Assembly (NCBI GenBank): GCA_964465695.1
Contig: CAYXKP010000001.1
Span: 4,714-68,713 of the forward strand
Direction: 5' to 3'
Origin: an uncultured Nitrospira sp.
Lineage (GTDB): Bacteria > Nitrospirota > Nitrospiria > Nitrospirales > Nitrospiraceae
Length of the DNA: 64,000 bases
Under the pieces are notes generated by a model. It searched no databases and was not told where the DNA came from. It was given only the letters and a program-made list of their open reading frames with translations. The position numbers were made by a program, and so were the translations under genes. Below, piece by piece: positions 15,395 through 57,986 of this stretch. Each line of letters starts with the position of its first letter. The first letter of the stretch is position 1.

Positions 15395-15400
15395 AGGTTT

Positions 15401-25628: not shown

Positions 25629-25673
25629 TCCGATATCCATCGGTGATTGCGCACACTCTCGTGGATATGGCGA

Positions 25674-38852: not shown

Positions 38853-39962
38853 ATGGAACAGGCAACCATCTCTGTCAAAGATAATGTGATTCACTGCCGG
38901 GGGGCATGGACCCTCCCACATCTTTCCCAGCTGGAACGGAGAGGGCGAGCGCTTCGATGGCCTGATGCTCCTACCGTCCTCTACGACGCGGGCGAAGTGA
39001 CCGCCATGGACACAGGCGGCGCGCTCGTCCTGCAGCGTTGCATCGACGGCGTTCGCCGTAAGGGGCAGCAGGCTGCTCTCCAGGGCTTGAAACCTGAATT
39101 TGCCGAACTGCTCCAAAAAGTCGAAGCTCAGTGGTCTCGGCCCGAGCGGAGAGTCCCGGCGAGCGGGACGGGGTGGACGGACGATTTCATGCGTGCGGTG
39201 CAGTCCCGGCAAATGTCAGCGATTCGCGCTCTCGCATTCGTCGGGGAAAGCACCATCGCCCTGGGCCGAGCGCTGATACGGCCGCGTTCCATTCGGTGGC
39301 GGGCGATGTTGCGCATCGTGGAATTGGACGGCGTGCGGGCCCTGCCGATCACCGGCCTGTTGACGTTTTTGGTCGGCGTCGTGATCGCCTATCAGGGCGC
39401 GGAACAGCTCCGCAAATTTGGCACGAATATTTTTATCGTGGACCTCGTCGGTATCTCGCTGTTGCGCGAAATCGCCCCGTTGATCGTGGCCATCCTCATC
39501 GCCGGTCGTTCGGGATCCGCCTATGCCGCTGAGATCGGCACCATGAAGGTGACCGAAGAATTGGACGCGGTGCGGACATTGGGCATCTCGCCCATGAATC
39601 TGCTCGTCTTGCCTCGGGCGCTGGCTCTCGTCATCGCTCTTCCGCTGTTGACGGTGTACGCGGACGTGGTAGGCGTGTTCGGCGGCATGCTGATCGCCTT
39701 GGGAGAACTGAACGTGAGTTTCGTCGAGTTTGTCACTCGATTCGAAGAAGCCGTACCCGTGCGGCATTTTCTCATCGGCTTAGGAAAGGCGCCGTTCTTC
39801 GCGGCGATCATCGCGTTGGTGGGCTGTTATCAAGGATTCCAGATCCGAGGCGGTGTGGATGACGTGGGGCGACACACCACGATCAGCGTCGTGCAGGGGA
39901 TTTTTTTGGTCATCGTGTTCGACGCGATCTGCAGCATTCTCCTCAATTGGTGGGATCTTTAA
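38853..39962 (+). CDS. mlaE: MlaE-family ABC permease with N-terminal STAS-like domain
   Basis: The C-terminal ~260 aa match the MlaE/YrbE pattern (REIAPLIVAILIAGRSGSAYAAEIGTMKVTEE.DA). The extra ~110-aa N-terminus resembles an anti-sigma antagonist (STAS) fold. Confidence 0.85.
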   Translation: MEQATISVKDNVIHCRGAWTLPHLSQLERRGRALRWPDAPTVLYDAGEVTAMDTGGALVLQRCIDGVRRKGQQAALQGLKPEFAELLQKVEAQWSRPERRVPASGTGWTDDFMRAVQSRQMSAIRALAFVGESTIALGRALIRPRSIRWRAMLRIVELDGVRALPITGLLTFLVGVVIAYQGAEQLRKFGTNIFIVDLVGISLLREIAPLIVAILIAGRSGSAYAAEIGTMKVTEELDAVRTLGISPMNLLVLPRALALVIALPLLTVYADVVGVFGGMLIALGELNVSFVEFVTRFEEAVPVRHFLIGLGKAPFFAAIIALVGCYQGFQIRGGVDDVGRHTTISVVQGIFLVIVFDAICSILLNWWDL

Positions 39963-40061
39963 CAAGATGAATTGGCAACCTGAGGCTCAAGGTCAAGGTC
40001 GAGATAGTCTCCGGAGATCCCTTGACCTTCACTTTAGCCTCACCTTGCACGAGAGTGTACC

Positions 40062-40871
40062 ATGATATCGGTGACAGAAACCGCGACGCCGATCATTGAA
40101 GTGAGTCACGTCGCGACGAAGTTTGGGCAGGCGGTCGTGCACGAGGACGTCAGCTTGACTATTCGGCGGGGCGAAATCTTCGCTATTGCGGGCGGCAACG
40201 GGTGCGGCAAGACCACGTTGTTACGGGAGATCATCGGCCTCATCACACCTTCGGCGGGAACGATCCGGCTATTCGGAATGGACAGCCGACGATTGGAAAC
40301 AAATGACGGACTTCCCATCCACCGCCGGTTCGGTGTGATGTTCCAGCATGGCGCATTATTCAGCTCCTTTACGCTCGCGGAGAACGTCGCCGTGCCGCTG
40401 CGCGAACATACGAAGCTGAGTGCGGGATTGATTCACGACATCGTCGCCGCCAAAATTGCCATGGTAGGATTGCCGCCGGACAGTGCCGCAAAATATCCCA
40501 ATGAGCTCAGCGGAGGGATGCGGAGAAGGGCCGCGCTCGCCCGGGCGATCGTCATGGACCCGGAGTTGTTGTTTCTCGACGAGCCGACCGCCGGGCTCGA
40601 TCCGATCATCGCTGCAGGATTCGATGATCTCGTCCTGGCGCTGAAGAGTCTGTTGGGACTGACGGTGGTGATGGTGACACATGACTTGGATTCGCTGTGG
40701 CGGATCGCAAACCGTGTGGCGGTGCTCGGTGGCGGAAAAGTGTTGGGCATCGGCACTATGCAGGAGTTGGCTCGATCGGACGATCCTGTCATCCGCGAAT
40801 ACTTTCAAGGCCCACGGGGAAGGGCGGCGAGCGAGCAGGCGGCATGGAACCACGAAAGACGTGAAACGTGA
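40062..40871 (+). CDS. mlaF: MlaF-like ABC ATPase
   Basis: Walker A GGNGCGKTT, signature LSGGMRRR, Walker B LLFLDEP. Confidence 0.85.
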   Translation: MISVTETATPIIEVSHVATKFGQAVVHEDVSLTIRRGEIFAIAGGNGCGKTTLLREIIGLITPSAGTIRLFGMDSRRLETNDGLPIHRRFGVMFQHGALFSSFTLAENVAVPLREHTKLSAGLIHDIVAAKIAMVGLPPDSAAKYPNELSGGMRRRAALARAIVMDPELLFLDEPTAGLDPIIAAGFDDLVLALKSLLGLTVVMVTHDLDSLWRIANRVAVLGGGKVLGIGTMQELARSDDPVIREYFQGPRGRAASEQAAWNHERRET

Positions 40872-41001
40872 CGCGTCGTCCTTGCAGACGGATCGTGGCT
40901 TATGGCTGGATAGCCGAACGAGGGATAGGAACTATTGTCCGACTTCGCCTTGCTCTAAGCCATACGCCATAAACGACTGGCTCTTCTGAACGAGATTACA
41001 C

Positions 41002-41964
41002 ATGGAACCAAAAGTCAATTATATTCTGGTCGGCTCGTTCATGGTGTTTCTTGGAGCGGCGGTCTTAATGGGAATTTTATGGTTGGGGAAGACCGACTAT
41101 CGGGGCTCGTATGACCGATATGAGGCCTACATGAAGGAATCGGTCGCGGGATTGAGCGTCGACTCCACTGTCAAATATCGTGGTGTCGACGTGGGACGGG
41201 TCAAGACCATTGCCTTGAATCCGAATAACCCGGAGGAAGTTCTCCTTACCATGGATATTGTGCGTGGGACACCGGTTAAAACGGACACGATTGCCGTACT
41301 CGAAACACAGGGGCTCACTGGCCTGGCAACCGTCAATTTGACGGGAGGGAGCAGGGATGCCCCTGCGTTGCAGGCCGGGGAGGGGCAAGCGTATCCGGTG
41401 ATCAAGACGGGTCCTTCCCTCTTCTACCGGTTGGATGAAGCAGTCACCCGTTTGCTTTCAGAGGAAGGGCTGGCGCAATTGTTGGCCGATCTTGATACAG
41501 CGGCAAAAGGTGCGGCCAAGGTCCTGGATGACGACAATCGCACCATGTTGAAACGAACGATCAAGGACCTCTCGGATGTGGCCCAGACCATTGCGGCCCA
41601 CAAGGCTCAGATTGAACTCACCTTGAACGGTGCGGCCAGAAGCGCCGACAATCTTGTCAAGCTCACGTCGTCGTTGAATGCTGAAGTTCCTATCCTTATC
41701 GCCGGAATCAACAAGAGCGTTGCAGCCTTGGGCGCGGCGACGGAGGAACTGGCTCGCACCAGCAAGACCGTCGGAGCGGTCGTCAATGAAGCCAGACCCG
41801 AATTACAACAGTTCACGGGAAGAACTCTCCCCGAAGCCGGCTTGTTGGTGACGGAGCTGCGGCAGCTTACGGGGACGTTGACTCGCGTGGCGCGGGAGTT
41901 GGAGCGGGAGCCGAGCTCGCTGGTGTTTGGACGAAAGGCTCCGCCACGCGGACCGGGGGAATAA
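41002..41964 (+). CDS. mlaD: MlaD/MCE-domain protein
   Basis: N-terminal TM anchor, MCE core (GLSVDSTVKYRGVDVGRV), helical C-terminal extension. Confidence 0.8.
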   Translation: MEPKVNYILVGSFMVFLGAAVLMGILWLGKTDYRGSYDRYEAYMKESVAGLSVDSTVKYRGVDVGRVKTIALNPNNPEEVLLTMDIVRGTPVKTDTIAVLETQGLTGLATVNLTGGSRDAPALQAGEGQAYPVIKTGPSLFYRLDEAVTRLLSEEGLAQLLADLDTAAKGAAKVLDDDNRTMLKRTIKDLSDVAQTIAAHKAQIELTLNGAARSADNLVKLTSSLNAEVPILIAGINKSVAALGAATEELARTSKTVGAVVNEARPELQQFTGRTLPEAGLLVTELRQLTGTLTRVARELEREPSSLVFGRKAPPRGPGE

Positions 41965-42092
41965 TCTAGAAAAGTGTGAGTCGTGAAGCGTATATCGCAT
42001 CAGAGAAATCCCATGAAGCCGCCGTTACGATCTGACTTTGCGAGATACGAGCGATGCTTCCCCCGATACAACTAGGGTTGGAAGGAAAGTAG

Positions 42093-42725
42093 ATGAAGTA
42101 TCGCTTGGTATACATGGCATTTGCGGTGTTCGTCATGACGACGGCCGGTTGCCTGTCACCCCGCACGGATTCTTCTGAAATCCATACATACCAGTTGAGC
42201 CTCGATGGATGGTCCGGCGAGGCGCGACCCGGCAAGCGTGAGGGGCCGGTGCTGTTGGTGAGTCAGCCTCAAGCCGAACCAGGATTTGAGACGCATCGCA
42301 TGGTGTATGTCAAACGGCCGTACGAACTCGAGTATTATGCGGTGAATCAATGGGCCGATACGCCGGTGCGCATGTTCGCTCAGCTGATGGTCCAGGCGCT
42401 GAATCAGCATGATGGGTGGCGTGCCGTGATTCCACTGCCGAGCTCGATCCCCGGAGACTATCGTCTTGATACGCACGGGTTTCTGTTGCAGCAGGAGTTT
42501 CTGCAACAACCCAGTCGCGTGAGGGTGGTGGTCCGGACGCAGTTGATCGACCTGAGGGAGTCCACGATCATCAGCGCACGGGCTTTTGAGGCGGTGGAGA
42601 ACGCCACCAGCGAAAATCCCTATGGGGGCGTTGAGGCCGCGAACCGAGCGGTTGCCGAGTTGCTCGGTCAAATCGGTTCTTGGCTCCGGCAATGCGTACA
42701 GCATACGCCCGAGTGCAGTCGTTAA
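42093..42725 (+). CDS. ABC-type transport auxiliary lipoprotein (DUF330-like) of the MCE system
   Basis: Lipobox TTAGC, appropriate size, and a position directly after the MCE gene. Confidence 0.65.
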   Translation: MKYRLVYMAFAVFVMTTAGCLSPRTDSSEIHTYQLSLDGWSGEARPGKREGPVLLVSQPQAEPGFETHRMVYVKRPYELEYYAVNQWADTPVRMFAQLMVQALNQHDGWRAVIPLPSSIPGDYRLDTHGFLLQQEFLQQPSRVRVVVRTQLIDLRESTIISARAFEAVENATSENPYGGVEAANRAVAELLGQIGSWLRQCVQHTPECSR

Positions 42726-42874: not shown

Positions 42875-43699
42875 TTATTGCTGCTCGATGCTGCACTGCT
42901 TAACCGAATCTAAGCTTTGGGCGGCTACCGCCGCTTCCCATCCCGGTTCACAAGCGAGAAGGCGAACCCGCAGCGTATTATGAAACTGTGGACCCAGTCG
43001 TGCCCGAGCTTCCGTATCGATTCCGTCCGCCCCAAGGAGGACCTCGCAGTCCGACAATCCCCGGAGGCCGATGCCTTGAGCCTTGAGCAGCGCCTCCTTC
43101 GCAACCCAATGGCGGAAGAATCTCGTGGCGCGCTGCTCTTCCGTAGCCTGCATGATTGCCGTATGTTCGGCGCGGGTAAAATAACGCTCGGATAGGTTTG
43201 CAGCCTCGATATCCGCGCGAACGCATTCAAGATCGACTCCGACCTCCTGCGTTTTTGAGACTGCAATGAGCGCACGGTCTTGGGCATGGGACAAATTGAA
43301 TGTGATCGCCGACCGATCTCGTAGCTCCCTCGTCAGGAACGGCTTACCTGTTTCACTGCGATCCAGCATTATCACATCCGGGTCCACTCCGAGGTACGCA
43401 CTCAGCACCGCCCTGAGGCCTCCGTGAGCCAGAATATAGCGCTGTCTGGTATTCTCCCGAACAAGGCGAGCCGCTCGTTGGCGCTCGAACTCATCCAACC
43501 AGCCCATGCATCGCTCCAAGCAACGTTGCGAGCCGTCGAGTTTCATGCCCCAGAGGTGAACAGCGTAAGGTTCAAGGCTGATATGGTTCTGCCGATTTGT
43601 ATCGGTGAGGCGCTCTATTGATTGGAACGAGATCAACACGTCGTTACCATAAGTCCAGACGGCGTCTGGTCGTCCGGCAAAGGACGGTGATGTACACAT
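42875..43699 (-). CDS. Sfp-type 4'-phosphopantetheinyl transferase
   Basis: GKPFL, FNLSH, GVDLE and WVAKEALLKA motifs. The first ATG downstream of the NRPS stop is at 43699, 5 nt away; the start is uncertain. Confidence 0.85.
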   Translation of the reverse strand: MCTSPSFAGRPDAVWTYGNDVLISFQSIERLTDTNRQNHISLEPYAVHLWGMKLDGSQRCLERCMGWLDEFERQRAARLVRENTRQRYILAHGGLRAVLSAYLGVDPDVIMLDRSETGKPFLTRELRDRSAITFNLSHAQDRALIAVSKTQEVGVDLECVRADIEAANLSERYFTRAEHTAIMQATEEQRATRFFRHWVAKEALLKAQGIGLRGLSDCEVLLGADGIDTEARARLGPQFHNTLRVRLLACEPGWEAAVAAQSLDSVKQCSIEQQ

Positions 43700-43703
43700 G
43701 CAG

Positions 43704-46700
43704 TTATATTGTCGGGACGGATCGCCGGCTCTCGGCATGTTCGGCGATATAGCGCTGAATGTGTGAGGATACCTCTTGGACGTGAGGTGACACCACAAGT
43801 TCTGCTGTTCGAAGGGCTGCCATATCTATGGTCTGGCAGCCGCGGCTTGCCAGTTCTCTCCATACATACCTGGTATCGTCGGGTTCGATTTGTTGCGCCG
43901 CCACGATGTTGAGAATGTGTCCCGGATAGGGACGCATCGTATACCGGGCGGCCGCATGGAACATCGCCTGTCGGACACGCTTGATCTGATGTTGCCTCAG
44001 CGCGGTTCCGTTCGGACGCCGAAGAACGGACATGAATGATTTATATTTTCGCCGTATGATCGACCACCGGTCTTTCATGCGGATGCGCCGGAGTTCGCCG
44101 ATGCTGTGCAGGATCGCCAAGAGTATTCCGAGCGGCAATGCGAGCCTTCTTCGTCGAGCGATATGATAGTGCTGGTGATACGAGCGCGGATGCCAGCTGT
44201 TTATTATGCAGAGGATGACCGATGCACCGTGAGCGGTCAATTGTTGCGCCACCTCATAGGCGACCAGCCCGCCGGTGCAGGCACCAACGATGACGTATGG
44301 TCCTTGGGGGAAGCATGTACGGATCTCACTCATATACTGTTGTGCCATCTCCGGCACCGAGCCGAATGGTGTCGCGTTGCCATCCAATCCACGCGCTTGC
44401 AGGCCGTACACCGGGTGGGTCTCGCTCAGCAGTCTTCCCAATTGAGCGAGCCATAACACATTGCCCATGACGCCCGGAACCAAAAAAATGGGAAGGGTCG
44501 ACCCGCTGGGCTGCATGGCGACCAGTGATTGCCAGGGCGAGGTCCAGTGCTCCTGTGTAAGAACCGACGTGAGACCGGCGATCGTCGGTGCCTGAAACAG
44601 GGTGGAAAGCGGAAGATGGCGGCCGTAGACCTGTTCAATCAGATAGAAAAGTTGAGCCGCTTTGAGCGAATGGCCCCCCAGATCGAAAAAGTTCTCGTGA
44701 ATCCCGATTTTGTCGATTCCGAACACCTGTTGCCACAAGGCCGCCATTTGTATTTCTATGCGATCGCGCGGCGCAACATACACAGCGTCGCTCGCAAGGA
44801 TGGATGTCGGAGCCGGTAACGCGTTCCTATCGACTTTATTATTGGCGGTCAACGGCATCGCCTTCAGAAAGACAAAAAGTGACGGAACCATATAATCTGG
44901 AATCTGCGATTGTAGAAACAAGCGAAGCTCCAGCTGGCTGGGAGCGGGCCCATCCTGGCAGACTACATACGCCACTAACTGTTTCACCCCTTGATGATCG
45001 GCTCGGGCCATGACCACGGCCTGCCGGACTGTTTGATGGCGGATGAGCGCGGTTTCGATCTCGCCCAATTCGATCCGGTACCCCCTGATTTTGACTTGGT
45101 GATCCAGCCGACCGAGATGCACGGTGCGACCATCCGGTCGATACCGCGCCAAATCTCCCGTGCGATACAGTTTTGAGAGAGGATTTGAGGAAAATGGGTG
45201 AGGCAGGAACCGCTCCTGAGTCAAGTCAGGCCGCCCTCGATAGCCTCGGGCTAACCCATGGCCTCCGATATAGAGCTCTCCGGCAACACCGATCGGAACC
45301 GGATGGAGGAATTGATCCAAGATGTACAGTTCTGTATTCGCAATCGGCCTTCCAATGGTGATCTCCCGATCACTCCGCTCGATTTTCTCGATCGTGGACC
45401 AAATCGTGGTTTCGGTCGGACCATACATATTCCACAAAGCGGTGCTGCGATCCAGCAAGGATGCGGCAAGGTCCGGGGGCAGGGCTTCCCCTCCGCACAG
45501 GACCGTCAAGTTCTGACTGCCTAGCCATCCAGCTTCGATCAACATTCGCCATGTCGCCGGCGTCGCTTGCATGATCGTCGGCTGAACCGCTTCACAGAGA
45601 GCCCGCAGTTGCCGTCCGTCCATTGCCACCGTTCGACCGGCGATCTCGACGCGGGCCCCGACCAATAACGGCACATATAATTCCAATCCGGCGATATCGA
45701 AGGACAGTGTCGTGACGGACAGCATGACATCTTGAGCGGAACATCCCGGTTGTTGTCGTATCGACCACAAGAAGTTCACCAGCGCTCGGTGCGGAATCTC
45801 CACACCTTTGGGCTGTCCCGTCGAGCCGGATGTGTACAAAATGTACGCCAAATCTTGAGGCGTGGCGGTCGGTGGGAGGTTATGGTGCGGCTCCTGAGCG
45901 ATCCGTTCTTGCTCTTGGCCGAGACACAGCCTGCGGCAGACCTGAGTATCAAACAGCTCGGCCAGGGGCTCGGATGTGAGTACGACGGTGAGCGAGGCGT
46001 TCTCCGACATAAACCGAAGTCGATCCCGCGGATAGTCAGGGTCCAGAGGCACGTAGGCCGCGCCGGTTTTAAGCACGGCCATCAGTGCAATGACCATCTC
46101 GAAGGATCGTTCCAGGCCGATACCCACGGCGGCCCCGGGTCGAGCGCCCAGCGTTTGGAGATAGCGTGCCAACTGATTGGCCTTGGCATTGAGCTCACCG
46201 TACCGCAGCGACTGACGTCCCATCGACAACGCCACGGCGTCAGGCGTCCGCTCGGCCTGTGCTTCAAACAGTTGTGGAAAACACTCGGACTCCGGATAGT
46301 CTCTGTTCGTAAGGTTCCAATCCTGCAACATCTGCCGGCGCTCCGGCGCCGTCAGTGTCGGGAGCTCGGACAGCTTGCTCTGAGGATTTGCCAAGGCGCT
46401 CTGAAGGAGAGTCTTATACTGCCCCAACATCCGTTCAGCCGTCTGCGGCTCGAAGAGATCGGTATTGAACGTCAAGTAGGCCTTTCGTGCAAACTCCGTC
46501 TCGATCGTCAAGCTCAAGTCGAATTGCGCTGCTTGGGTCTCCACCTCGAACGGCACCCAACTCAATCCTTGGACGGTAATCTCTCCGATGGGAGCGTTCG
46601 GGACATTGAAGAGGACCTGCACCAGCGGGGCGGAACTATGGTCGCGAGCGGAGTGCATCGTTTCGACCAACTTATCGAACGGGAAGTCCTGATTGGCGTA

Positions 46701-49700
46701 GGCCTCTAACGCCGTTTCGCGCACCTGTCCCATCAACTCGATGAATGTCGGATTGCCGGAGAGATCCGCACGCAAGACGAGTGTATTGACGAACGAGCCG
46801 ATGATCGACTCGATGGAGGATTGGGTTCGGTTGGCGATAGGAGTACCCACGGCGATGTCCGTTTGGCCGGAATAGCGATGCAAGAGAATCTGGAAACAGG
46901 CCAAGAGAGTCATGAACATCGTCGCATTGTGCTCTGCGCTGAACTGTTTCAGTCGCTCGATCAACGACGAGGGCAGCTCCAGCGTGCGATGTGACCCGTT
47001 GAACGTTTGCACCCCGGGCCGTGGATGATCGGTCGGCAACGACAGCTTGGAAAGCCCGGCCAACTTCTTCTGCCAATAATCCGATTGCGTGCGGAGCCAA
47101 TCATCGGTCAGGCTCCGACGCTGCCACACCGCATAGTCGGCATACTGAAGGCGGATCGGCTTCGGTGACGGAACGTCTCCTCGGCAAAATGCGTTGTAGA
47201 AAGACGCAAACTCTTGACCGATGATGCCGAACGACCATTGATCTCCGATGATGTGATGCATCGTGAGCACCAACACATGGTCCTCGGGCTCAATTGCAAT
47301 CAATAAGAATCGTGCCAGGGGGCCCTTTTCAAGATCGAACGGCTGGTTGGCTTCATGTTCTACGAGCCGAGCCGCTTGCTGTCGGCCCTGTTCGCGAGGC
47401 AGTTCCTGAAGATCCACTTCCACCCAATGAGGAGGGCGAAAAGGGTGGATGATTTGGACCGGTCCCTCTTCCTTCATCAGGAACGTCGTTCTAAACGCCT
47501 CATGGCGGCTACAGATGGCATCGATCGTATTCCGGAGGGCTGTCTTATCAAGTCGTCCCATCTGCCGGGAAGCAAACGGCATGTTATACGCCGTGCTTTG
47601 AGGAGCCAGGCGATGCATCAACCACATGCGTTGCTGAGAATAGGAAAGCGGAAGCGGCTGATCTCGGGGCACCGGAACGATGGGCGGCACGGAAGCCCGC
47701 TGTTCCCTCCGGCGTGACCGCGCCACTTCTTCCGCCAGCGACGCGATAGTCGGCCGCTCGAAAAGCGCTTGTAGCGGGATATCGACCTCAAAAAGCTCGC
47801 GTATCCGGGACACGAGCTGCGTCGCCAGCAGTGAGTGGCCTCCATGCTCGAAGAAGTGGTCGTGGATGCCCGCCTCAGGTACCTGAAGCAGGGATTTCCA
47901 CAGTTCAGCCAAGGCTTCTTCAACCTGATTTCTTGGGGCTATCCTGGCTGTGGTTCGACCAGTCGAGTCTTCCGGAGCGGGAAGGGCATGTCGATTCACT
48001 TTTCCGGCGGTACTGAGCGGCATCGAGTCGAGCCACAGGACGACGGACGGCACCATGTACTGCGGCAGCCGAGCGGCGAGATGGCTGCGCACCTGTTCGA
48101 GTCTATTTTTGACCGACGACTCGCCGGCAACATACCCGATCAAACGGTGCTGACCGGGCGCATCTTCTCGAAGCAGCACCGCCGCGTGATGCACGCCCTG
48201 GAAATTACTCAATACATATTCGATTTCTCCCAGCTCGATCCGATATCCGCGCAGTTTGACCTGCTGGTCCATCCGCCCAAGGAACTCCACATTGCCGTCG
48301 CCCCGATACCGAGCCTGATCACCGGTCCGATACAGTCTGGTGCCGGGTACGTAGGGATTCGGGGGAAATCGCTCATGAGTCAACTGCGGCTGGTTGACAT
48401 AGCCGCGCGCCAGACACTTTCCCCCGATGTAGAGTTCTCCCGGTACACCGATAGGCATCGGCTGGAGATTAGGATCCAGCACGTAGAGTTGCATATGCGG
48501 GATGGGTTTGCCGATGGGTACGCGGGCCCCGTTTTCCTCACGAGTCGTTTGATACAGGCTGCACCACACCGTGGCTTCCGTCGGTCCATATTCGTTGCAC
48601 AGTGCGGCATGGGGCAGCAGCTGGTAATGTCGTCGCACGAGTTCAAGTGGGAGGCTTTCCCCGGCCGTAATGACGACGCGAAGCGATTCGAGCTGGGCTT
48701 GTAACGCCTCACCGAGCACGGCATGGTACAAAGACGGTACCCACACGATGTGTGAGATGCGATGATGCTCGATGAGCGAAGCTAGCTCCGTTGGGTCACG
48801 ATGGGCCGTCTCTGATGGGATGACCAACTCCCCTCCCTGCAGTAGGGTCCAGAATATGCCCGTCACAGATCCATCAAAGGCCAGAGAGAAGGTGAGCAAG
48901 AATCGGGAGACCGGTTCCGGATAGGACTGAAGTCTGGCATGAAAAGAAGTCACCACACTACCGTGGGTCACGGCCACACCCTTGGGCCGCCCTGTCGACC
49001 CCGACGTGTATATGATGTAAGCGAGCTGATCAGGGGAAACGGGAAGCGCCAGGTTGTCATCCTCCGCTCCGCTTCCGGTGGGCCTGTACAGGGTCTCCAC
49101 GTCACAGATTTGGCCGCCGTAGCCCTTTAAATGGTCCCGGAGGTGCGTCTGTGTGACCACGATGGACACTTGCGCGTCTTCCAACATGAGCTGGAGGCGG
49201 TGAGCCGGGAAGGACGGATCCAGGGGAACATAACCGCCACCGGCTTTGAGAATACTCAAGAGACCCACAAGAGCATCGACGGAGCGCTCAACACAGAGAC
49301 CCACCGGGAGATCTGCATCGACCCCTAATTTCCGTAGCGCGCGAGCGGCTCGATTCGCTCGTCGATTGAGCTCTTGGTAGCTGATGGACTGGTCGCCACA
49401 CGTGACAGCGAGCGCATGGGGAGTCCGCTCAACCTGCGCCTCGATGAGTGCATGGATGCCGGAAGCTTGAGGAGGTGGCTCCTTCCACGTCAGTTGAATG
49501 TTCCGTCTGTCCTCGGCGGTCAGCAATGAAAGTTGGTCAAGACGGGCCTCGGGTCTTTTGAGAAAGTCTTCCAGAAGGATCTCGAGCTGTCCCAACATGC
49601 GGTCGATCGTCGAGTCGTCGAAAATCGTCGCGTCATGAAGAAACGCCAAGTCCAAGCCGTCCACTTTGTTGACCACCATCAACACGAGGTCGAACTCAGA

Positions 49701-52700
49701 CGCCGTCGGCTCCCAGGGGAGATGAGCCACCTCAAGATTCCTGACGGTGAATGCAGACAAAGGATCGTCTTCCCACACCATCATCACGTTGAACAGGGGG
49801 GACAGCAGACGCGCTCGCTGTAACGACAGCGCCTCGATCACTTCTTCGAACGGGAGGTCCTGATGGTCATAGGCGTCCACCACCACCTGGCGTACTTGCT
49901 GCAAGAGCCCGTGTCCTGTCAGCCCGTCCGATAGCTTGGACCGCAACGCCACCGTATTCACGCAATAGCCCATCACGTTTTCGAGCTCTTTCCGCCGCCT
50001 GCCCGCCACGATCGACCCGATCACCAGATCCGTCTCTTGAGTGTAGCGATGCAGCCACGTGGCGAAGACGGCGTACAGCACCATGAACGCCGTGACGTTC
50101 CAGCGTTGACAGAAACGATCCAGGCCGGCCGAAAGTTCCGGAGGAAGCGGTCGTGACCGCACGCCTCCCTCGAACGTGCGTGCCCGCGGCCGCTGACGAT
50201 CGATAGGTAATTCAGCGGGAGGGCGCGCGCCGCTCAACTGTCTGGTCCAATAGGTTTGATGGACTTCACGAAGGCCTTGGTTCAGTCTGGTCCTCTGCCA
50301 ATCGGCATAGTCCGCATACTGGACCGTCAACGTGGGAAGTCCAGCCTTTCGAGCATCACCATCGGCCTTCCATAGAAGAGCCAATTCCTTCCAGAAGACA
50401 CGGATAGACCACCCGTCGGCGATGAGACGGTGGAATGTCAGCGTCAAGACATGTACATCCTGTTCGAGCGTCAGCAGGGTAAGTCTGAATAGTGGTCCTT
50501 GACGTAAGTCGAACGGTCGGCTACTCTCCGCCCGTAGGAATTGCTGCATCTGAAGGCCTTGCTCTGCTGCGGTCAATGCTTGCAAATCTCGCCGGCCGAT
50601 CGTACCGATCACCTTATCTGATATTTCAGCGAATCCCTCCCCTCGCTCCGATCCGAAACGGGTTCGAAGAATCTGGTGGCGACGGGCAATTTCCCGCACC
50701 GAGCGCTCCAATACCTCGGGATTGACGGATCCCCGTAGACGTACCGCCATGGAAATATGGTTGATGGCGCTTCCAGGATGGACCTGCTCCAAGAACCACA
50801 GGCGTTGCTGCGAAGGACTGAGTGGAATCTTGCCTTGCCTGATGGATATCGAAGGAATCGGAACGGGTTGTATCCGTGTCCTGCCGTCACCGCCTGCGTT
50901 TCCATCTTTGTCCGCGGCTCGGTCCCCGCCATCCGGACCGGTGGTCAGTTCGCCGATCCGGGCGGCCAGTGCGGACAATGTCGGAGACTCGAACAGCGTA
51001 CTGAGAGGGAGCTCAACGTGAAATACGTCGAGAATGTGCGCAACGACCTGCGCTGCAAGGAGCGAATTGCCTCCAAGTGCGAAGAAGTTCGCATGGCGAT
51101 GCGGATGGGGTTCTCCCAGCACCTCTTGCCAGATATCGGCCAGCTGTTTCTCGATAGCGGTTTGTGGAGGCTCGCGGAGCAACTCATCGGATTCTTCCAG
51201 CTCCAGCGTGCTCGCCGCGACGACGGCGAGTTGGCCGGACTCAAAGGCGGCTTTGCAGGCGCTCCGCTGAATCTTTCCGCTGGAGGTCCGCGGGATCGTG
51301 CCGGGCTTGATCAATACCACACTATGGAGTTCGAGCTCATATTCGTCGGCCAACGCGCGACGGATGGCACCCACGACTTCCGCAAAATCGGATTCAGACA
51401 CCTGCTTGTCTATCTCATGGACCAGCACCACCAACTCGCCGGTTTTGCCCTCCACGGAAAAGGCCGCCCCGTATCCCCGCCGCAGACCGGGATGCGCCTG
51501 TTGGGCCGTCCACTCCAGATCATGGGGATAGTAGTTCCGCCCTCGCACGATGATCAGATCTTTGAGACGTCCCGTCAGGAACAGTTCACCGCGGTGGAGG
51601 AATCCCAGATCGCCGGTCCGCAAATAGGGACCCTCTCCTGACACCGCGAGAGCGGCGTGAAACACGGCGTTGGTTTCCTCCGGTTTGCCCCAGTATCCGG
51701 CGCCGATTCCAGCTCCGGCCAGCCACACTTCCCCGACAACGCCCGGCGGGCATTCGCCGAGCGTCGTAGGATTCACAATGCGGACACGCGTCTCATCGAG
51801 AGGCTCTCCGCATCCGACTAAGGTACGCGTTCCACGTTGAGATGCGGCGAACTCTTTGACGATCGAGTCGGCCAACGCATCGGCCTCCACGTGCAAGAAG
51901 GTGGGATCCGCGTCGGCGCGCTTCATCGTCACTAATAGTGTGGCTTCCGCAAGACCGTATCCCGGGACAAACGCCGTTCGCCGAAAACCATGTGCGCCAA
52001 AGGTGTAGATGAACTGCACAACCGTGTCCGGATGAATGGGTTCGGCACCGCAACTGGCGACCACCCACCTGCTTAAGTCAGCCCGCCATTCGCTCTGTTG
52101 CCGCACGGCTCTGAGGCAAGCCTCATAGCAGAAATTCGGTCCCCCGCTGTGGGTGATCGCAAATCGAGACACCGCTTCAAGCCAACGTAATGGCCGCCGG
52201 AGAAACGTGACGGGAGACATCAGATAGGCGGGGATACCGGCATAGAACGGAGCAATAATGCCGTGCACCAACCCATAGTCATGGAAATAGGGCAACCAGC
52301 AGAGCGACCGGCTGTGGCGCGACACCATCCCGGCCATACTCAAAGCTCGGCAGTGAGATAGCACGTTGCCATGGCCGATCATGACGCCGCGAGGGGTCGC
52401 CGTCGACCCAGAGGTGTATTGCAGGTAAGCAAGAGCGCTGCTGTGAGGCCGTGGCAATTCGGCCGATTCGAAGGAATCGCCAAGTTCATCCGTCGCCATC
52501 CAATTGATCTGCCCCGCCTCCTTGACGCTGAGCTCTGAAGAGAGAGCCGCCACACTTGAAGTCGTAAGTACCAGCGATACGCGAGCATCCTCGATGATGC
52601 CGCGCAACCTGATCAGACCGGATTTTCCTTTGATGGGATCGGGCGCGGGAGCCGGAACGGGCACGAGGCCGGCACAGGCACATGCCCAGAAAGCACATGC

Positions 52701-52934
52701 GGCATCGAGTCCCTGTGGATAGAGCAAGAGGGCTTTGGCTCCTGCCGGGACCTCGCGCGAAAGACGGCGGGCAAGCGAATTCACCCTCTGTTCAAGCTGG
52801 CCGTAGGTGAGCCGGCGCTCAATTTCCAGGTTATCGCGAACCAAGGCGTAGGCAAGGTCCTCCGGCTGCTGCCGGCATCGAAGCACGAAGAGATCGAATA
52901 AGTTGGGAATAGCCGGAGGAGGAAGTGCAGACAT
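43704..52934 (-). CDS. 3076-aa nonribosomal peptide synthetase: FAAL - T - C - A - T - C - A(Gly-like) - T - TE-like
   Basis: N-terminal fatty acyl-AMP ligase (LQYTSGSTATPRGV, WLPYFHDYGL). Three carrier domains (GGNSL, GGHSL, GGHSL). Two C domains (HRLIADG, HHIIGDQ). Two A domains (SGSTGRPKG / SGSTGQPKG ... GKVNR / NKVDR). C-terminal alpha/beta-hydrolase domain with GACTG. Confidence 0.95.
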   Translation of the reverse strand: MSALPPPAIPNLFDLFVLRCRQQPEDLAYALVRDNLEIERRLTYGQLEQRVNSLARRLSREVPAGAKALLLYPQGLDAACAFWACACAGLVPVPAPAPDPIKGKSGLIRLRGIIEDARVSLVLTTSSVAALSSELSVKEAGQINWMATDELGDSFESAELPRPHSSALAYLQYTSGSTATPRGVMIGHGNVLSHCRALSMAGMVSRHSRSLCWLPYFHDYGLVHGIIAPFYAGIPAYLMSPVTFLRRPLRWLEAVSRFAITHSGGPNFCYEACLRAVRQQSEWRADLSRWVVASCGAEPIHPDTVVQFIYTFGAHGFRRTAFVPGYGLAEATLLVTMKRADADPTFLHVEADALADSIVKEFAASQRGTRTLVGCGEPLDETRVRIVNPTTLGECPPGVVGEVWLAGAGIGAGYWGKPEETNAVFHAALAVSGEGPYLRTGDLGFLHRGELFLTGRLKDLIIVRGRNYYPHDLEWTAQQAHPGLRRGYGAAFSVEGKTGELVVLVHEIDKQVSESDFAEVVGAIRRALADEYELELHSVVLIKPGTIPRTSSGKIQRSACKAAFESGQLAVVAASTLELEESDELLREPPQTAIEKQLADIWQEVLGEPHPHRHANFFALGGNSLLAAQVVAHILDVFHVELPLSTLFESPTLSALAARIGELTTGPDGGDRAADKDGNAGGDGRTRIQPVPIPSISIRQGKIPLSPSQQRLWFLEQVHPGSAINHISMAVRLRGSVNPEVLERSVREIARRHQILRTRFGSERGEGFAEISDKVIGTIGRRDLQALTAAEQGLQMQQFLRAESSRPFDLRQGPLFRLTLLTLEQDVHVLTLTFHRLIADGWSIRVFWKELALLWKADGDARKAGLPTLTVQYADYADWQRTRLNQGLREVHQTYWTRQLSGARPPAELPIDRQRPRARTFEGGVRSRPLPPELSAGLDRFCQRWNVTAFMVLYAVFATWLHRYTQETDLVIGSIVAGRRRKELENVMGYCVNTVALRSKLSDGLTGHGLLQQVRQVVVDAYDHQDLPFEEVIEALSLQRARLLSPLFNVMMVWEDDPLSAFTVRNLEVAHLPWEPTASEFDLVLMVVNKVDGLDLAFLHDATIFDDSTIDRMLGQLEILLEDFLKRPEARLDQLSLLTAEDRRNIQLTWKEPPPQASGIHALIEAQVERTPHALAVTCGDQSISYQELNRRANRAARALRKLGVDADLPVGLCVERSVDALVGLLSILKAGGGYVPLDPSFPAHRLQLMLEDAQVSIVVTQTHLRDHLKGYGGQICDVETLYRPTGSGAEDDNLALPVSPDQLAYIIYTSGSTGRPKGVAVTHGSVVTSFHARLQSYPEPVSRFLLTFSLAFDGSVTGIFWTLLQGGELVIPSETAHRDPTELASLIEHHRISHIVWVPSLYHAVLGEALQAQLESLRVVITAGESLPLELVRRHYQLLPHAALCNEYGPTEATVWCSLYQTTREENGARVPIGKPIPHMQLYVLDPNLQPMPIGVPGELYIGGKCLARGYVNQPQLTHERFPPNPYVPGTRLYRTGDQARYRGDGNVEFLGRMDQQVKLRGYRIELGEIEYVLSNFQGVHHAAVLLREDAPGQHRLIGYVAGESSVKNRLEQVRSHLAARLPQYMVPSVVLWLDSMPLSTAGKVNRHALPAPEDSTGRTTARIAPRNQVEEALAELWKSLLQVPEAGIHDHFFEHGGHSLLATQLVSRIRELFEVDIPLQALFERPTIASLAEEVARSRRREQRASVPPIVPVPRDQPLPLSYSQQRMWLMHRLAPQSTAYNMPFASRQMGRLDKTALRNTIDAICSRHEAFRTTFLMKEEGPVQIIHPFRPPHWVEVDLQELPREQGRQQAARLVEHEANQPFDLEKGPLARFLLIAIEPEDHVLVLTMHHIIGDQWSFGIIGQEFASFYNAFCRGDVPSPKPIRLQYADYAVWQRRSLTDDWLRTQSDYWQKKLAGLSKLSLPTDHPRPGVQTFNGSHRTLELPSSLIERLKQFSAEHNATMFMTLLACFQILLHRYSGQTDIAVGTPIANRTQSSIESIIGSFVNTLVLRADLSGNPTFIELMGQVRETALEAYANQDFPFDKLVETMHSARDHSSAPLVQVLFNVPNAPIGEITVQGLSWVPFEVETQAAQFDLSLTIETEFARKAYLTFNTDLFEPQTAERMLGQYKTLLQSALANPQSKLSELPTLTAPERRQMLQDWNLTNRDYPESECFPQLFEAQAERTPDAVALSMGRQSLRYGELNAKANQLARYLQTLGARPGAAVGIGLERSFEMVIALMAVLKTGAAYVPLDPDYPRDRLRFMSENASLTVVLTSEPLAELFDTQVCRRLCLGQEQERIAQEPHHNLPPTATPQDLAYILYTSGSTGQPKGVEIPHRALVNFLWSIRQQPGCSAQDVMLSVTTLSFDIAGLELYVPLLVGARVEIAGRTVAMDGRQLRALCEAVQPTIMQATPATWRMLIEAGWLGSQNLTVLCGGEALPPDLAASLLDRSTALWNMYGPTETTIWSTIEKIERSDREITIGRPIANTELYILDQFLHPVPIGVAGELYIGGHGLARGYRGRPDLTQERFLPHPFSSNPLSKLYRTGDLARYRPDGRTVHLGRLDHQVKIRGYRIELGEIETALIRHQTVRQAVVMARADHQGVKQLVAYVVCQDGPAPSQLELRLFLQSQIPDYMVPSLFVFLKAMPLTANNKVDRNALPAPTSILASDAVYVAPRDRIEIQMAALWQQVFGIDKIGIHENFFDLGGHSLKAAQLFYLIEQVYGRHLPLSTLFQAPTIAGLTSVLTQEHWTSPWQSLVAMQPSGSTLPIFLVPGVMGNVLWLAQLGRLLSETHPVYGLQARGLDGNATPFGSVPEMAQQYMSEIRTCFPQGPYVIVGACTGGLVAYEVAQQLTAHGASVILCIINSWHPRSYHQHYHIARRRRLALPLGILLAILHSIGELRRIRMKDRWSIIRRKYKSFMSVLRRPNGTALRQHQIKRVRQAMFHAAARYTMRPYPGHILNIVAAQQIEPDDTRYVWRELASRGCQTIDMAALRTAELVVSPHVQEVSSHIQRYIAEHAESRRSVPTI

Positions 52935-53379
52935 GGACGCGAGACACCCCGAGAGCTTCGATTCGGATCTACTTGACTGCTGGCCGCTATCCGGTCACCG
53001 ATGACTAGAGTAGTGTGCTTGATAACAAATTCAAAGAATTTATCGGTTTCAAACCGGGAAGTAATTCCTCTTGAACGTTTGGCGCGCGATTGAAGCAGCG
53101 TCTTTCTCTTGTGAGAATTGGTGCTGAGGGAAAGAGCAAGAAGTCTCGGGGGATGCTGTTAGCCGTTTGCACTAACTTCTCCGCACAGTGAAGGACTGTA
53201 GCCTTCTGCATCATCAGGGTGAAGAAGCTCTGGGGTATTTTACGTCATTTGTTCATTATCCCAGGCGCGCGATTGTAACAAAACCCCTTAAGCCATTGAC
53301 AGGTATAGACAAATATCCCTCTGGGCGCTGAAGGTTATGGCACACTGCTCGCACTGGATGACGCAGTAAGGAGATGAAG

Positions 53380-53769
53380 ATGCATATGATCGAAGGAAGG
53401 GCGGTATTGTACGCGCTACTGATGGGTTTGTCAGGATTGGGGTTCAGTAATATCGGAGTAAAAGATCTCACCGAATTCACAAAGGGCGGCGATCCGGTCA
53501 GTGGACGAGAAATATATGTGAATACCTGCATGCGATGCCATGGAATCGACGGCAAAGGCGCGCTCGGAATCAAACTTGTTCCGCCTCCGGCCGACCTCAC
53601 TTCGGCTGTCGTCCAAAAGCGCCTCGACGGCACATTGTTTCGTCGCATCCATGAAGGCAAGCCGAATACCGCCATGGGTGCGTGGAAACACAGTCTCTCT
53701 GATGAAGAGATTTGGGATGTTTTGGCCTATGTGCGCACACTCGGCGCTGAGTCGGGTGAACAACCATGA
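53380..53769 (+). CDS. Monoheme c-type cytochrome
   Basis: Signal-like N-terminus, CMRCHGIDGKG heme motif, distal Met region (NTAMGAW). ATG53380 is better spaced from the SD aaggag than ATG53374. Confidence 0.8.
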   Translation: MHMIEGRAVLYALLMGLSGLGFSNIGVKDLTEFTKGGDPVSGREIYVNTCMRCHGIDGKGALGIKLVPPPADLTSAVVQKRLDGTLFRRIHEGKPNTAMGAWKHSLSDEEIWDVLAYVRTLGAESGEQP

Positions 53770-53856
53770 AGATGAATCCTGCGGGCCTGCACCGTCTCTT
53801 ACTCCCGTAAGGGCGGATCAACGACGCGGACTTGTAGAAAAAGAGAGGTCCAATTC

Positions 53857-54711
53857 ATGAGCCGACAGATCATTGCAGGTGCCTTGCTGGCAAGCACGCT
53901 GTTGGGGGTGATGAGTTGTGTCCCGCCTCCACGAGTGACCAGCAGTACCGAGCCGGCGGGTGGACAGAGCAGGCAGGCGCCCATCGATGCGTTGTTTGTC
54001 CCCCCATCGCCTGAAACGATTCCAGGTGATCTGAGAGGCGAGCAGATTCGGCTGGGCTACAAGATGATCGTCGACACGCAGGAGTATGGCAAGCGGTATG
54101 TTGGAAACGCGCTCAACTGCACCAATTGTCATTTGGACGCGGGGCTCAACCCGAATGCCGCGTCCTTCGTCGGTATCAGTACGCTTTATCCGCAGTATCG
54201 TGAACGAGCGGGCCGACAGATGACGCTGGCCGATCGAATCAACGAGTGTTTCGAGCGCAGCATGAACGGAAAACCTCTGCCGCCGGACAGTGTGAAGCTC
54301 ACGGCCATCGTCGCGTATATCGAATGGTTGTCCCAGAATATGCCGCCCGGCTTCGAGGTCCCCTGGCGGGGAATTCCGCGTCTGACCTCGGCCCATGAGC
54401 CCGACCCCCTCAACGGTAAAAAGGTCTTTGAGAAAAAGTGTCTGTTCTGCCACGGCTCGGACGGACAAGGCACCATGACGGCCCCGCCCGTATGGGGGCC
54501 TCGTTCGTACAATATCGGGGCAGGAATGGCCCGGGTCGGCGTCGCCGCCTCTTTTATTAAGGCCAACATGCCGCGAGGCTGGGGATGGTCGGTGACGGAC
54601 GATGAAGCCATCGATGTTGCAGCCTATATCAATACTCAACCCCGGCCCGACTTTCCCGGCAAGATTCACGATTGGCCGAAGGGCGGCAAGCCGGCGGATG
54701 CGCCCTATTGA
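53857..54711 (+). CDS. tsdA: TsdA-like diheme cytochrome c (thiosulfate dehydrogenase family), lipoprotein
   Basis: Lipobox GVMSC. Two CxxCH motifs (CTNCH, CLFCH). Collinear with TsdA as I remember it: FVG...YPQY..R.G...TL..RI.ECFERS.NG, PPVWGPRSYN.GAGM, FIKANMP. Confidence 0.75.
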   Translation: MSRQIIAGALLASTLLGVMSCVPPPRVTSSTEPAGGQSRQAPIDALFVPPSPETIPGDLRGEQIRLGYKMIVDTQEYGKRYVGNALNCTNCHLDAGLNPNAASFVGISTLYPQYRERAGRQMTLADRINECFERSMNGKPLPPDSVKLTAIVAYIEWLSQNMPPGFEVPWRGIPRLTSAHEPDPLNGKKVFEKKCLFCHGSDGQGTMTAPPVWGPRSYNIGAGMARVGVAASFIKANMPRGWGWSVTDDEAIDVAAYINTQPRPDFPGKIHDWPKGGKPADAPY

Positions 54712-54783
54712 GACACCAATAGGCGTCGATTTTTGTCGGTTTCGCGTGTTGGCAGCGGTGAAGCTTGGGGGACAAGGAGCGGA

Positions 54784-55203
54784 ATGAAACTCACGGCCAC
54801 CTTTCACGGCGGAACGCGCTATGACATTGTCAGCGGACAGCATCGTGTCATCACCGATCAGACGGTCGAGGACGGAGGGCAGGATGCCGGAATGGGTCCG
54901 GTTGAGCTCTTCGTCGGGTCCGTCGCGAGTTGTGTCGCGTATTTCGTCGGGCAATTCTGCGGGCGGCACGGCATTTCCCGAGACGGCTTGGCGGTCGATG
55001 CGGAGTGGACCATGGCCGAAGCTCCTCATCGAGTGGGTCGTATCGACATCGGAATCCATCTTCCCCATCGAATCACCCCAGAGCAAAAAGAGCGTCTATT
55101 AAAGGTGGCGCATGGCTGCACGGTGCATCAGTCCATCGCCGTGACGCCGAACATCGGTATCAAGTTGAATCCGCCCGTGCATCAGAAAGCCGATGGATCA
55201 TAG
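54784..55203 (+). CDS. OsmC/Ohr-family peroxiredoxin-like protein
   Basis: GPVELFVGSVASC...VAHGCTVHQS, the two conserved Cys contexts of the OsmC family. Confidence 0.8.
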   Translation: MKLTATFHGGTRYDIVSGQHRVITDQTVEDGGQDAGMGPVELFVGSVASCVAYFVGQFCGRHGISRDGLAVDAEWTMAEAPHRVGRIDIGIHLPHRITPEQKERLLKVAHGCTVHQSIAVTPNIGIKLNPPVHQKADGS

Positions 55204-55249
55204 AGTCGCACGCAAGACATCGCCGTGCGGGCCAACGCTTCATCAACCA

Positions 55250-56668: not shown

Positions 56669-56791
56669 CGGAGTTTCAAGCTCCACGCTGCTGTCATGAG
56701 TGTGACTTCCGTAGGAGGAGGTGTTCGGGCGGATGGACGGGAAGCAGTTATGAAAATGAGAACATAAACGTACCTGAATAAGGAGGAAAGA

Positions 56792-57286
56792 ATGAGTGTC
56801 CGACGATACGGAACAACTTTGTTAATCGTTCCGCTCGCCATGGCGACGTTGATGATCTGGAATGATGGTCCCGACATCGCGTATGCACAAACCAAGGGAA
56901 TGGAGGCGCCGCCGTCAAAGGTGGAGATCACCATCAAGGATCGTCAGCACGGATATGAGACGGTCGGGATGACGATGCCGTCGCAGGACACGATCATCGT
57001 CGTTAGGAACCAGGATTCCGTGACGCATGGATTGGCGTCTGCGTTGTTCAAAAACCTTCCCGTGAAGGTGGAAGGTGGGACTGAGGTGCGAGGTAAACGG
57101 TTCAAATCGTTTCATGTCGATGCGGGAAAGACCATGACGCTTCGTTTCGCTACCGCACCCTCGAACTTCGATCCGGCAACTGGTGGGGCTGAAAGTGTGC
57201 GGCACGCACTGTGGTGCGACATCCATCCTGAAGTGAAAGGAGAACTGTTTATCATTGAAACCCGAGGGGATATAGGGGGCGGGTGA
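56792..57286 (+). CDS. Cupredoxin-like periplasmic protein with non-canonical copper site
   Basis: SD aaggagg and a signal peptide. His (VTHGL) plus a C-terminal WCDIHPEVKGELFI loop (Cys-x2-His) with no Met at the usual axial position. Confidence 0.55.
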   Translation: MSVRRYGTTLLIVPLAMATLMIWNDGPDIAYAQTKGMEAPPSKVEITIKDRQHGYETVGMTMPSQDTIIVVRNQDSVTHGLASALFKNLPVKVEGGTEVRGKRFKSFHVDAGKTMTLRFATAPSNFDPATGGAESVRHALWCDIHPEVKGELFIIETRGDIGGG

Positions 57287-57955: not shown

Positions 57956-57986
57956 TCAAAAACCGCAGCTAGTCAAGGAGTCCATC

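Follow-up and report, generated by a model that had tools for sequence, protein, structure and literature searches.

A FAAL-initiated bimodular nonribosomal peptide synthetase locus of Nitrospira with a predicted N-acyl-X-Gly intermediate and two conserved, non-canonical active sites

We analysed a 64-kb stretch of DNA (64,000 nucleotides, referred to here as the window) from an uncultured Nitrospira sp., in which a large nonribosomal peptide synthetase (NRPS) gene is followed by a gene for an Sfp-type 4'-phosphopantetheinyl transferase (PPTase). The NRPS gene was found to be a single uninterrupted open reading frame (ORF) of 3076 aa on the minus strand, in agreement with the one 9.2-kb gene described in an initial annotation of this DNA, and an ORF of 3076 codons cannot be a chance feature. 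Automated Pfam and NCBIfam scans returned the domain order FAAL-T-C-A-T-C-A-T-TE (FAAL, fatty acyl-AMP ligase; T, carrier; C, condensation; A, adenylation; TE, thioesterase), identical to the order proposed initially. The coordinates of the domains, of the residues discussed below and of the flanking features are collected in Table 1.

All three carriers keep the phosphopantetheine serine of the GGxS motif (Ser624, Ser1701 and Ser2756), and both A domains carry YTSGSTGxPKG, NxYGPTE, YRTGD and GRxDxQVKxRG together with the Asp and Lys of the specificity code. The top PDB matches of the N-terminal domain are FAALs or FAAL-type loading domains (7r7g with 458 bits, 3kxw, FadD23, FadD32, FadD28 and 3pbk), its C-terminal subdomain is DIP2-like (PF23024 in Pfam), and T1 follows it directly. 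Between YGLAE and GEP this domain has 45 residues where A1 has 21, a difference consistent with the FAAL-specific insertion. The NCBIfam FAAL models scored 433-513 bits on the loading domain, below their cutoffs of 600-1100, so that no equivalog assignment could be made. The PPTase is two-lobed (AASDHPPT_N and ACPS in Pfam), with its GVD (at 154) and WVAKEALLK (at 198) motifs intact, and is 60-75% identical to the orthologous PPTases of relatives; its best NCBIfam match, HetI, gave 155.8 bits and does not reach the equivalog cutoff of 370. The Sfp type and the adjacency to the NRPS gene thus stand as first annotated, the spacer between the TAA of the NRPS and the ATG of the PPTase being CTGC, 4 nt, within one base of the 5 nt first given.

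Table 1. Features of the NRPS-PPTase locus and its flanks, in window coordinates
Feature	Coordinates	Strand	Basis
NRPS gene	43704..52934	-	Single ORF; Pfam/NCBIfam domains; full-length colinear Nitrospira orthologues
FAAL domain, aa 17-573	51216..52886	-	Pfam/NCBIfam; best PDB matches; PF23024
Carrier T1 (Ser624 at 51063-51065)	50955..51146	-	PP-binding match; GGNSL motif
Condensation C1, HRxxxDG (His835-Arg836 at 50427-50432)	49515..50834	-	Condensation match
Adenylation A1, code DGTVIAEVWK, His-like or Tyr-like	47982..49445	-	Code extraction; AMP-binding and AMP-binding_C
Carrier T2 (Ser1701)	47715..47921	-	GGHSL motif; one of three Pfam PP-binding stretches
Condensation C2, HHIIGDQWS, aa 1761-2203	46326..47654	-	Pfam Condensation; motif
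Adenylation A2, code DILQLGMIWK (predicted Gly), AMP-binding aa 2223-2565 and AMP-binding_C	44814..46268	-	Code
Carrier T3 (Ser2756)	44559..44759	-	PP-binding match; GGHSL motif
Thioesterase-fold domain, Thioesterase from aa 2815	43740..44528	-	Pfam; AF2 model; Foldseek
TE residue Cys2886	44277-44279	-	
TE residue Asn2912	44199-44201	-	
TE residue Thr3043	43806-43808	-	
Sfp-type 4'-phosphopantetheinyl transferase, 274 aa, ATG at 43699	42875..43699	-	ACPS and AASDHPPT_N
Mla-type lipid ABC transport genes: MlaE-STAS, MlaF, MlaD, auxiliary lipoprotein	38853..42725	+	Pfam, NCBIfam
Divergent intergenic region from NRPS start to TsdA-like gene; presumed promoter region	52935..53856	.	No Pfam-supported gene

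With the N-terminal 1128 aa as query, proteins from Nitrospira metagenome-assembled genomes (MAGs) were found to be 68-80% identical, and homologues of the next layer, at ~40%, were FAAL-T-C-A-T proteins from Sorangium, cyanobacteria and further groups. When GTDB species genomes were scanned, colinear orthologues over the full length came only from Nitrospira/Nitrospirales (L001, L002, L003, L004, L005, L006, L013 and L019); in Acidobacteria, Verrucomicrobia, cyanobacteria and other groups the similarity is confined to the C-A(Gly)-T-TE end. In two of these orthologues the frame of the NRPS shifts, at 14989-14997 in L001 and at 15123-15130 in L002, both in the T2 region of long-read contigs that were deposited under adjacent ENA analysis accessions. 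A two-gene split as the real architecture was rejected, as the shifts lie at different sites and the protein is colinear; they are probably homopolymer assembly errors which make gene callers split the NRPS.

Selection was assessed from Nei-Gojobori ratios of nonsynonymous to synonymous substitution (dN/dS) between the window and L086, L085, L084, L083, L013 and L001, leaving out the FAAL and C1 rows of L084 (26-33% identity, cross-domain matches on a truncated locus). These relatives are at most 81% identical to the window, with dS of 0.6-1.3 and partly saturated, and the ratios over all domains were 0.07-0.37. They were 0.08-0.18 for the FAAL, C and A domains, apart from one frameshift-affected outlier at 0.37, 0.14-0.33 for the TE (0.18 against L085, the closest DNA relative compared) and 0.16-0.27 for the PPTase. 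The locus is under purifying selection. A TE fragment, P0121, is 94% identical.

In L001, L002, L003, L004, L006, L013 and L019 the gene order is NRPS, a 553-aa ATP-binding cassette (ABC) transporter, PPTase. This transporter matches TIGR01194, the family of cyclic peptide export ABC transporters, with 463 bits (cutoff 286), and it is present in L001-L006, L013 and L019, while no orthologue of it was found anywhere in the 64-kb window. At L005 the cluster lies at the same chromosomal site as in the window, flanked by the TsdA-like gene on its upstream side and by the Mla genes on its downstream side; the exporter is present there and a PPTase was not detected. We conclude from this distribution that the ancestral unit was NRPS-exporter-PPTase, and that the exporter was lost in the sublineage of the window. 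The absence of a transport gene, remarked on in the initial annotation, is true of this sublineage, but relatives carry the TIGR01194 exporter between NRPS and PPTase, and its presence in orthologous clusters, including the one at the same site in L005, makes the orphan arrangement a derived state.

The Stachelhaus specificity codes were extracted independently by anchoring on the FDxx, xxxP, xxAGE/GGE, NxYGPTE and GK/NK motifs. The strings obtained, DGTVIAEVWK for A1 and DILQLGMIWK for A2, are the same as those first read from the protein by hand. A survey of 2051 A domains published in 2025 (PMC12283262) includes the string DILQLGMIWK itself among its Gly codes, so that A2 agrees with a published Gly code at 10/10 positions. 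In addition AB3403 (4ZXI), whose structure has glycine bound, scored 385 bits against A2 and 265 against A1, and 5U89 scored 471 and 369 respectively. A2 is a predicted Gly-activating domain by the code criterion, and the glycine originally suggested for it agrees with both the published code and the AB3403 scoring.

The picture for A1 is less simple. The nearest codes in the survey tables are His(1) DSALIAEVWK and Tyr(27) DGTITAEVAK, each with 7/10 positions identical, and its tables for Phe, Trp, Thr, Ser, Dab/Dap, Pro and part of Lys hold no closer code (PMC12283262). No description of the A1 code was found in a literature search, the coverage of which was incomplete, so that novelty is unproven. 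A1 shares the deep-pocket residues Ile299, Ala301, Glu322, Val330 and Trp331 with the His code, and differs from DS[AP]LIAEVWK by conservative changes at 236, 239 and 278. A small residue at 239, Glu322 and Trp331 are shared with His codes, and Gly236 and Thr239 with the Bacillus Tyr code. Distant Nitrospirales orthologues have other codes at the A1 position, either DTEDIGTVAK, 8/10 identical to a Lys code among those tabulated, or DVGEVGSIDK, which we take to be Orn-like; a basic residue 1 would fit this family pattern. We infer that residue 1 is more probably His-like than Tyr-like. A1, which could not be assigned at first, still has no single assignment, but it is no longer without candidates.

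C2 carries the motif HHIIGDQ and C1 carries HRLIADG, which departs from the HHxxxDG of modular NRPS C domains. In a pairwise alignment of C1 (FHRLIADGWS) with the Txo2 C domain (MHHIVSDGWS), Arg836 takes precisely the place of the second His. C1 was rejected as a C-starter domain, as the starter C domains of RzmA and CDA scored only 73 and 50 bits against 260 and 251 bits for the elongation C domains of Txo2 and Txo1. We compared the motif with the A1 code, counting only sequences in which the region (P0001-P0018) or the motif was covered. HR was present in every Nitrospira sequence with the code DGT[VI][IV]AEVWK (L001, L002, L003, L005, L013, L019 and P0001-P0018), while HH occurred together with other codes in L004, L006 and ~95 further FAAL-T-C-A-T homologues covering the motif.

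HRxxxD motifs have been described in the glycopeptide X domain, in the CON domain of LovB and in the extra C domain of hypeptin, all regarded as non-condensing or inactive, and in each of them, as in C1, Arg replaces the second His. Domains with HRxxxDD, HRxxxDR and HRxxxDG being treated as non-condensing in the literature, and Arg836 lying exactly at the second His, C1 might likewise be inert, and the product would then be a non-acylated dipeptide or would receive its acyl chain by another route. We consider this quite unlikely. The X, LovB CON and hypeptin domains are extra or terminal and are unneeded for elongation, whereas in the window NRPS no C domain other than C1 is in a position to link the acyl chain with residue 1, and C1 is elongation-like and keeps the DG of the motif. 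Furthermore, FAAL-T1-C1 is intact across relatives down to ~45% identity, with dN/dS of 0.13-0.18, and the Arg is found strictly together with a single acceptor code, as would be expected of adaptation and not of decay. The role of the second His is itself debated, with acceptor-amine positioning and acceptor specificity among the proposals, and its mutation does not abolish activity in every C domain. The strict co-variation together with the low dN/dS argues for the Arg of C1 being an adaptation and not an inactivation.

The terminal domain was modelled with AF2 on a 102-sequence alignment. The model (pLDDT 92) has the standard topology of a type I TE, with the Cys at the elbow after strand 85-90 and three lid helices over ~80 residues, and Foldseek matched it with a probability of 1.00 to NRPS and PKS thioesterases, among them AB3403 with a TM of 0.67; Pks13 and FAS thioesterases were also matched. 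In the model Cys2886 occupies the nucleophile elbow after beta5 (GACTGG), Asn2912 lies after beta6, the site of the triad Asp in NRPS TEs, and Thr3043 lies after beta8 at the position of the His. A profile alignment of the whole AB3403 TE with the window TE (294 bits) confirmed this register and paired GWCFGG of AB3403 with GACTGG at the nucleophile, IDT with INS at the Asp (position I) and GDH with LRT at the His. The only solved NRPS TEs with a Cys nucleophile are those of ObiF, SulM and AB3403, and the His is retained in all three.

Family alignments split the Nitrospira TEs into two subclades. Subclade B, which occurs with the exporter, has CTGG, [D/E]TWHP and [D/N]SG, and subclade A, which includes the window TE and occurs without the exporter, has CTGG, NSW(H)P and RT. 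Asn and Thr as private degenerative changes of the window TE were rejected, as more than 20 sequences of one subclade, down to 54% identity, keep the variant motifs NSW.P and RT. The window TE is only 39-50% identical to clade B, as against 64-84% for every other domain, while within clade B the TEs of L001 and L013 are 81% identical, and within subclade A TE identity is 74-54% with dN/dS of 0.18-0.29. We conclude from this drop in identity that the TE diverged rapidly in the lineage which lost the exporter and was conserved afterwards. Across 65 clade TEs the invariant residues, in TE numbering, are Cys91, Thr92, Tyr98, Glu99, Trp119, Pro121, Tyr124, Asn214 and Asp225-Thr226-Arg227. His2915 of the WHP motif (His120 in TE numbering) is 92% conserved in the same 65 sequences; it was rejected as a relocated base because several close relatives and most members of the wider family have another residue there. 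Nor was there support for a transmembrane anchor in the lid, where the hydrophobic stretch has a Kyte-Doolittle value of 1.54, no higher than that of several buried core segments of the protein.

An exhaustive HMMER search was run over 1.84 billion cluster representatives, which returned 140 matches at E<1e-30; 146 newly returned proteins among the best 150 (P0241-P0386) were then surveyed. At least 57 of the 146 combine Cys, Asp/Glu and a Ser at the His position (DSG replacing GDH). Such His-less Cys-TEs occur in proteins of up to ~4,100 aa, and His120 is usually absent from them. The CTGG branch, which is closest to the window TE, is almost always preceded by a Gly code, while in the broader GxC[MI]GG branch Val, Thr and Pro codes precede the TE as well. 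This family of His-less Cys-TEs seems to be widespread, and a literature search, again of incomplete coverage and so leaving novelty unproven, found no description of His-less Cys-TEs in NRPSs.

These observations bear on whether the domain is a hydrolase at all. It might instead be a Cys-dependent station for acyl transfer or cyclisation, which would take the acyl-dipeptide from T3 on Cys2886 and pass it to a nucleophile other than water; this could be the residue 1 side chain, another chain, or an acceptor that is a small molecule or part of the membrane. The product would then not be the free acid acyl-X-Gly-OH. No TE of the Nitrospira clade has the canonical His, and at least 57 of the 146 relatives lack it too, all with the Cys retained, and the domain is under purifying selection; the three lid helices and the Pks13 and FAS thioesterases among the Foldseek matches, the Gly module which almost always precedes the closest sub-branch and would present an unhindered thioester, and the cyclic-peptide-type exporter of the relatives are all consistent with transfer. 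On the other hand, no acceptor-supplying gene is conserved next to the cluster, cyclisation of a dipeptide through its side chain would give only strained 8-10-membered rings, and hydrolysis by way of a differently placed base could still occur. We regard transfer in place of hydrolysis as improbable on balance.

It could also be argued that the locus is a decaying, non-functional remnant, the ORF being open by chance or by recent history. Compared with other Nitrospira, the locus has lost the ABC exporter, the TE has fallen to 39-50% identity with clade B, and the active-site motifs of C1 and TE are both non-canonical. Against this, the 9.2-kb ORF contains no stop, every domain, the TE among them, has a dN/dS well below 1, the variant TE motifs are themselves conserved, and the synteny of NRPS, PPTase and Mla genes recurs in three other assemblies. 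We therefore hold a remnant to be very unlikely.

The intact gene, its domain order and motifs, the two codes, and the conservation, purifying selection and synteny of the locus are observations. From them we infer a pathway, and this inference takes in each of its chemical steps as well as the nature of residue 1, of the acyl chain and of the release mode. The Sfp-type PPTase would convert the three carriers to their holo form, and the N-terminal FAAL would adenylate a free fatty acid and load it on T1. A1 would load T2 with an alpha-amino acid bearing a polar aromatic or heteroaromatic side chain, His being favoured over Tyr, and C1, elongation-type with Arg for its second His, would join the acyl chain to this residue. 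A2 would load Gly on T3, C2 would form acyl-X-Gly-S-T3, and the chain would then move to Cys2886 of the TE-fold domain, which lacks the triad His. Release would be non-canonical, by slow or substrate-assisted hydrolysis, an unconventional base, intramolecular attack or transfer to another nucleophile. The cyclic-peptide-type ABC exporter of the ancestral cluster would have been lost as the TE diverged sharply.

An N-acyl-X-Gly intermediate on T3 is our best reading of the locus, with lipoinitiation and release chemistry uncertain. We give about an even chance to this explanation as a whole, in which a biosynthetic locus on the chromosome of a Nitrospira, conserved in its lineage, runs the pathway as proposed. 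Several points weigh against the reading: His and Tyr are tied on code identity for A1, within the survey tables; the HRxxxD domains of other systems have been called non-condensing or inactive; neither the Asp nor the His of the Ser/Cys-Asp-His triad is kept; His2915, the only conserved His nearby, gives way to other residues in some close relatives and most of the wider family; and the window cluster has no exporter gene. The N-acyl dipeptide product predicted initially survives as the acyl-X-Gly intermediate, while plain hydrolytic release presumed canonical catalysis; with HRxxxDG in C1 and Cys-Asn-Thr in the TE, lipoinitiation and release may both be non-canonical.

A more specific mechanism can be imagined. 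If residue 1 is His, the imidazole of the substrate might compensate for the His missing in C1 and in the TE. In this proposal the terminal domain would belong to a large, undescribed class of His-less Cys-TEs that release or transfer products by a different mechanism, C1, whose Arg co-varies with a His-like acceptor, would likewise work differently, and the product would be an acyl-His-Gly lipodipeptide, the imidazole of which assists catalysis. The TE also lacks the His in relatives with Lys-like or Orn-like codes and a normal C1, which leaves compensation by imidazole at the level of a hypothesis, and we think this whole proposal unlikely to be right as it stands.

The best solved-structure match for T3-TE is AB3403 (A1S_0115; PDB 4ZXH/4ZXI) of the Acinetobacter baumannii cluster A1S_0112-0119, which has the same C-A-T-TE architecture, a Cys nucleophile in the TE and glycine bound in the A domain. 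AB3403 differs in that it has only one module, that its adenylating enzyme and carrier stand alone, and that its TE has a full Cys-Asp-His triad, whereas in the window NRPS the loading domains are fused, there is one extra module, and the Asp and His of the TE are replaced. On these comparisons AB3403 is the nearest characterised relative of the terminal module. Its cluster, which has a putative efflux gene, has been proposed to make a nonribosomal lipopeptide, and the metabolite, Ac-505, is ill-defined. Genes for an acyl-activating enzyme, for a carrier protein and for a PPTase belong to this cluster as well.

The top NCBIfam match of the protein was the PvdL-type family PRK05691 (aa 17-2803, 2311 bits); as this lies below the cutoff of 4090, the window NRPS is not a member of that family. 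PvdL shares the N-terminal acyl-AMP ligase-T-C-A arrangement, and its C1 and A domains are detectable homologues, but PvdL has four modules and no TE and builds the pyoverdine chromophore precursor, and the window locus has no pyoverdine genes. The mycobacterial FadD10-ACP-Nrp system (Rv0099-Rv0101), which we liken to the window NRPS by description only, combines a FAAL with a bimodular NRPS to give a short lipopeptide; it has a stand-alone FAAL and acyl carrier protein (ACP), reductive release by an R-domain and isonitrile tailoring. ObiF (beta-lactone) and SulM (beta-lactam) also have a Cys nucleophile in the terminal TE of an NRPS and make small products, but they keep the His, with the Asp after beta7, and their chemistry needs a beta-hydroxy or beta-amino C-terminal residue, which the Gly of the window system cannot supply.

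Around the locus, the NRPS and PPTase genes converge with genes for the auxiliary lipoprotein, MlaD, MlaF and MlaE-STAS, followed by FtsH, DUF1207 and phosphoketolase genes. The NRPS-PPTase-Mla arrangement recurs in three Nitrospira assemblies (L083, L084 and L085), and the Mla genes are conserved, convergent neighbours with at most a putative link to the NRPS. Beyond the PPTase of L001, L002, L003, L004, L013 and L019, on the opposite strand, are a deaminase of the cytidine/deoxycytidylate deaminase family, an RskA-type anti-sigma factor and an extracytoplasmic function (ECF) sigma factor, a set that is kept down to 42% identity; the pattern is absent in L006. This conserved sigma/anti-sigma pair may be a regulatory link. 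Upstream, the ~135 bp directly before the NRPS start are 74% conserved with L005. Matches to sigma-70-like promoters and to terminators did not rise above those in shuffled sequence, and no Rfam families (the intergenic region included), tRNAs or MbtH-like ORFs were found.

Divergent from the NRPS, at 53857-59358, is a set of genes of sulfur (thiosulfate) oxidation type, encoding a TsdA/SoxA-like dihaem cytochrome c, a 491-aa multihaem cytochrome c, a DsrE-family protein and another cytochrome c; L005 and L086 also have these genes upstream of their NRPS. In L005 (1127-3112) ~2.5 kb separate the TsdA gene from the NRPS, and hold a hydrophobic 250-aa ORF and ORFs that are, on their sequence alone, putatively transposase-like. 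On the other side, ~11 kb from the PPTase, a complete exporter is encoded at 26071-31573 (a HlyD-family adaptor, an ABC ATPase with two nucleotide-binding domains and a DrrA-like C-terminus, and two ABC-2 permeases), and it is a possible candidate to substitute for the lost exporter of the cluster. Acetate kinase and phosphoketolase (XFP) genes stand in tandem at 32052-35695, and in L084 a phosphoketolase gene also lies beyond the Mla/FtsH block. Further away, three large PAS/GAF hybrid sensor kinases (1269, 612 and 1451 aa; 1184-13712) surround a KaiC-like double-ATPase gene (4962-6737), and at 13841-17827 a 517-aa ORF with no Pfam match precedes a TonB-dependent receptor (Plug and barrel). 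An ORF at 19368-19940 with only the C-terminal IMS_C and DUF4113 of a Y-family polymerase may be a truncated gene, and the interval 24001-26000, which has the lowest GC of the window (0.519), may be a small foreign or degraded segment.

The layout reported here is that of an ordinary FAAL-primed NRPS with two non-canonical, conserved active sites, and at the level of the gene the finding is ordinary genome mining. NRPS clusters have been counted in Nitrospira MAGs (PMC9765116), and our literature search found no characterised nonribosomal product from this genus. Nitrospira are key nitrite-oxidising nitrifiers in soils, waters and wastewater plants, and the locus offers a compact, two-gene and heterologously tractable entry to a metabolite conserved across the genus. 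The C domain with HRxxxDG at an essential position and the His-less Cys-TE are natural, selectively maintained variants, which can be used to probe the roles of the second His of C domains and of the His of the TE triad. Rule-based annotation of biosynthetic gene clusters may be calling many His-less Cys-TEs ordinary hydrolytic TEs. If the proposal for residue 1 is true, acyl-His-Gly would be a Nitrospira-specific lipodipeptide with a putative metal-binding, membrane or signalling role.

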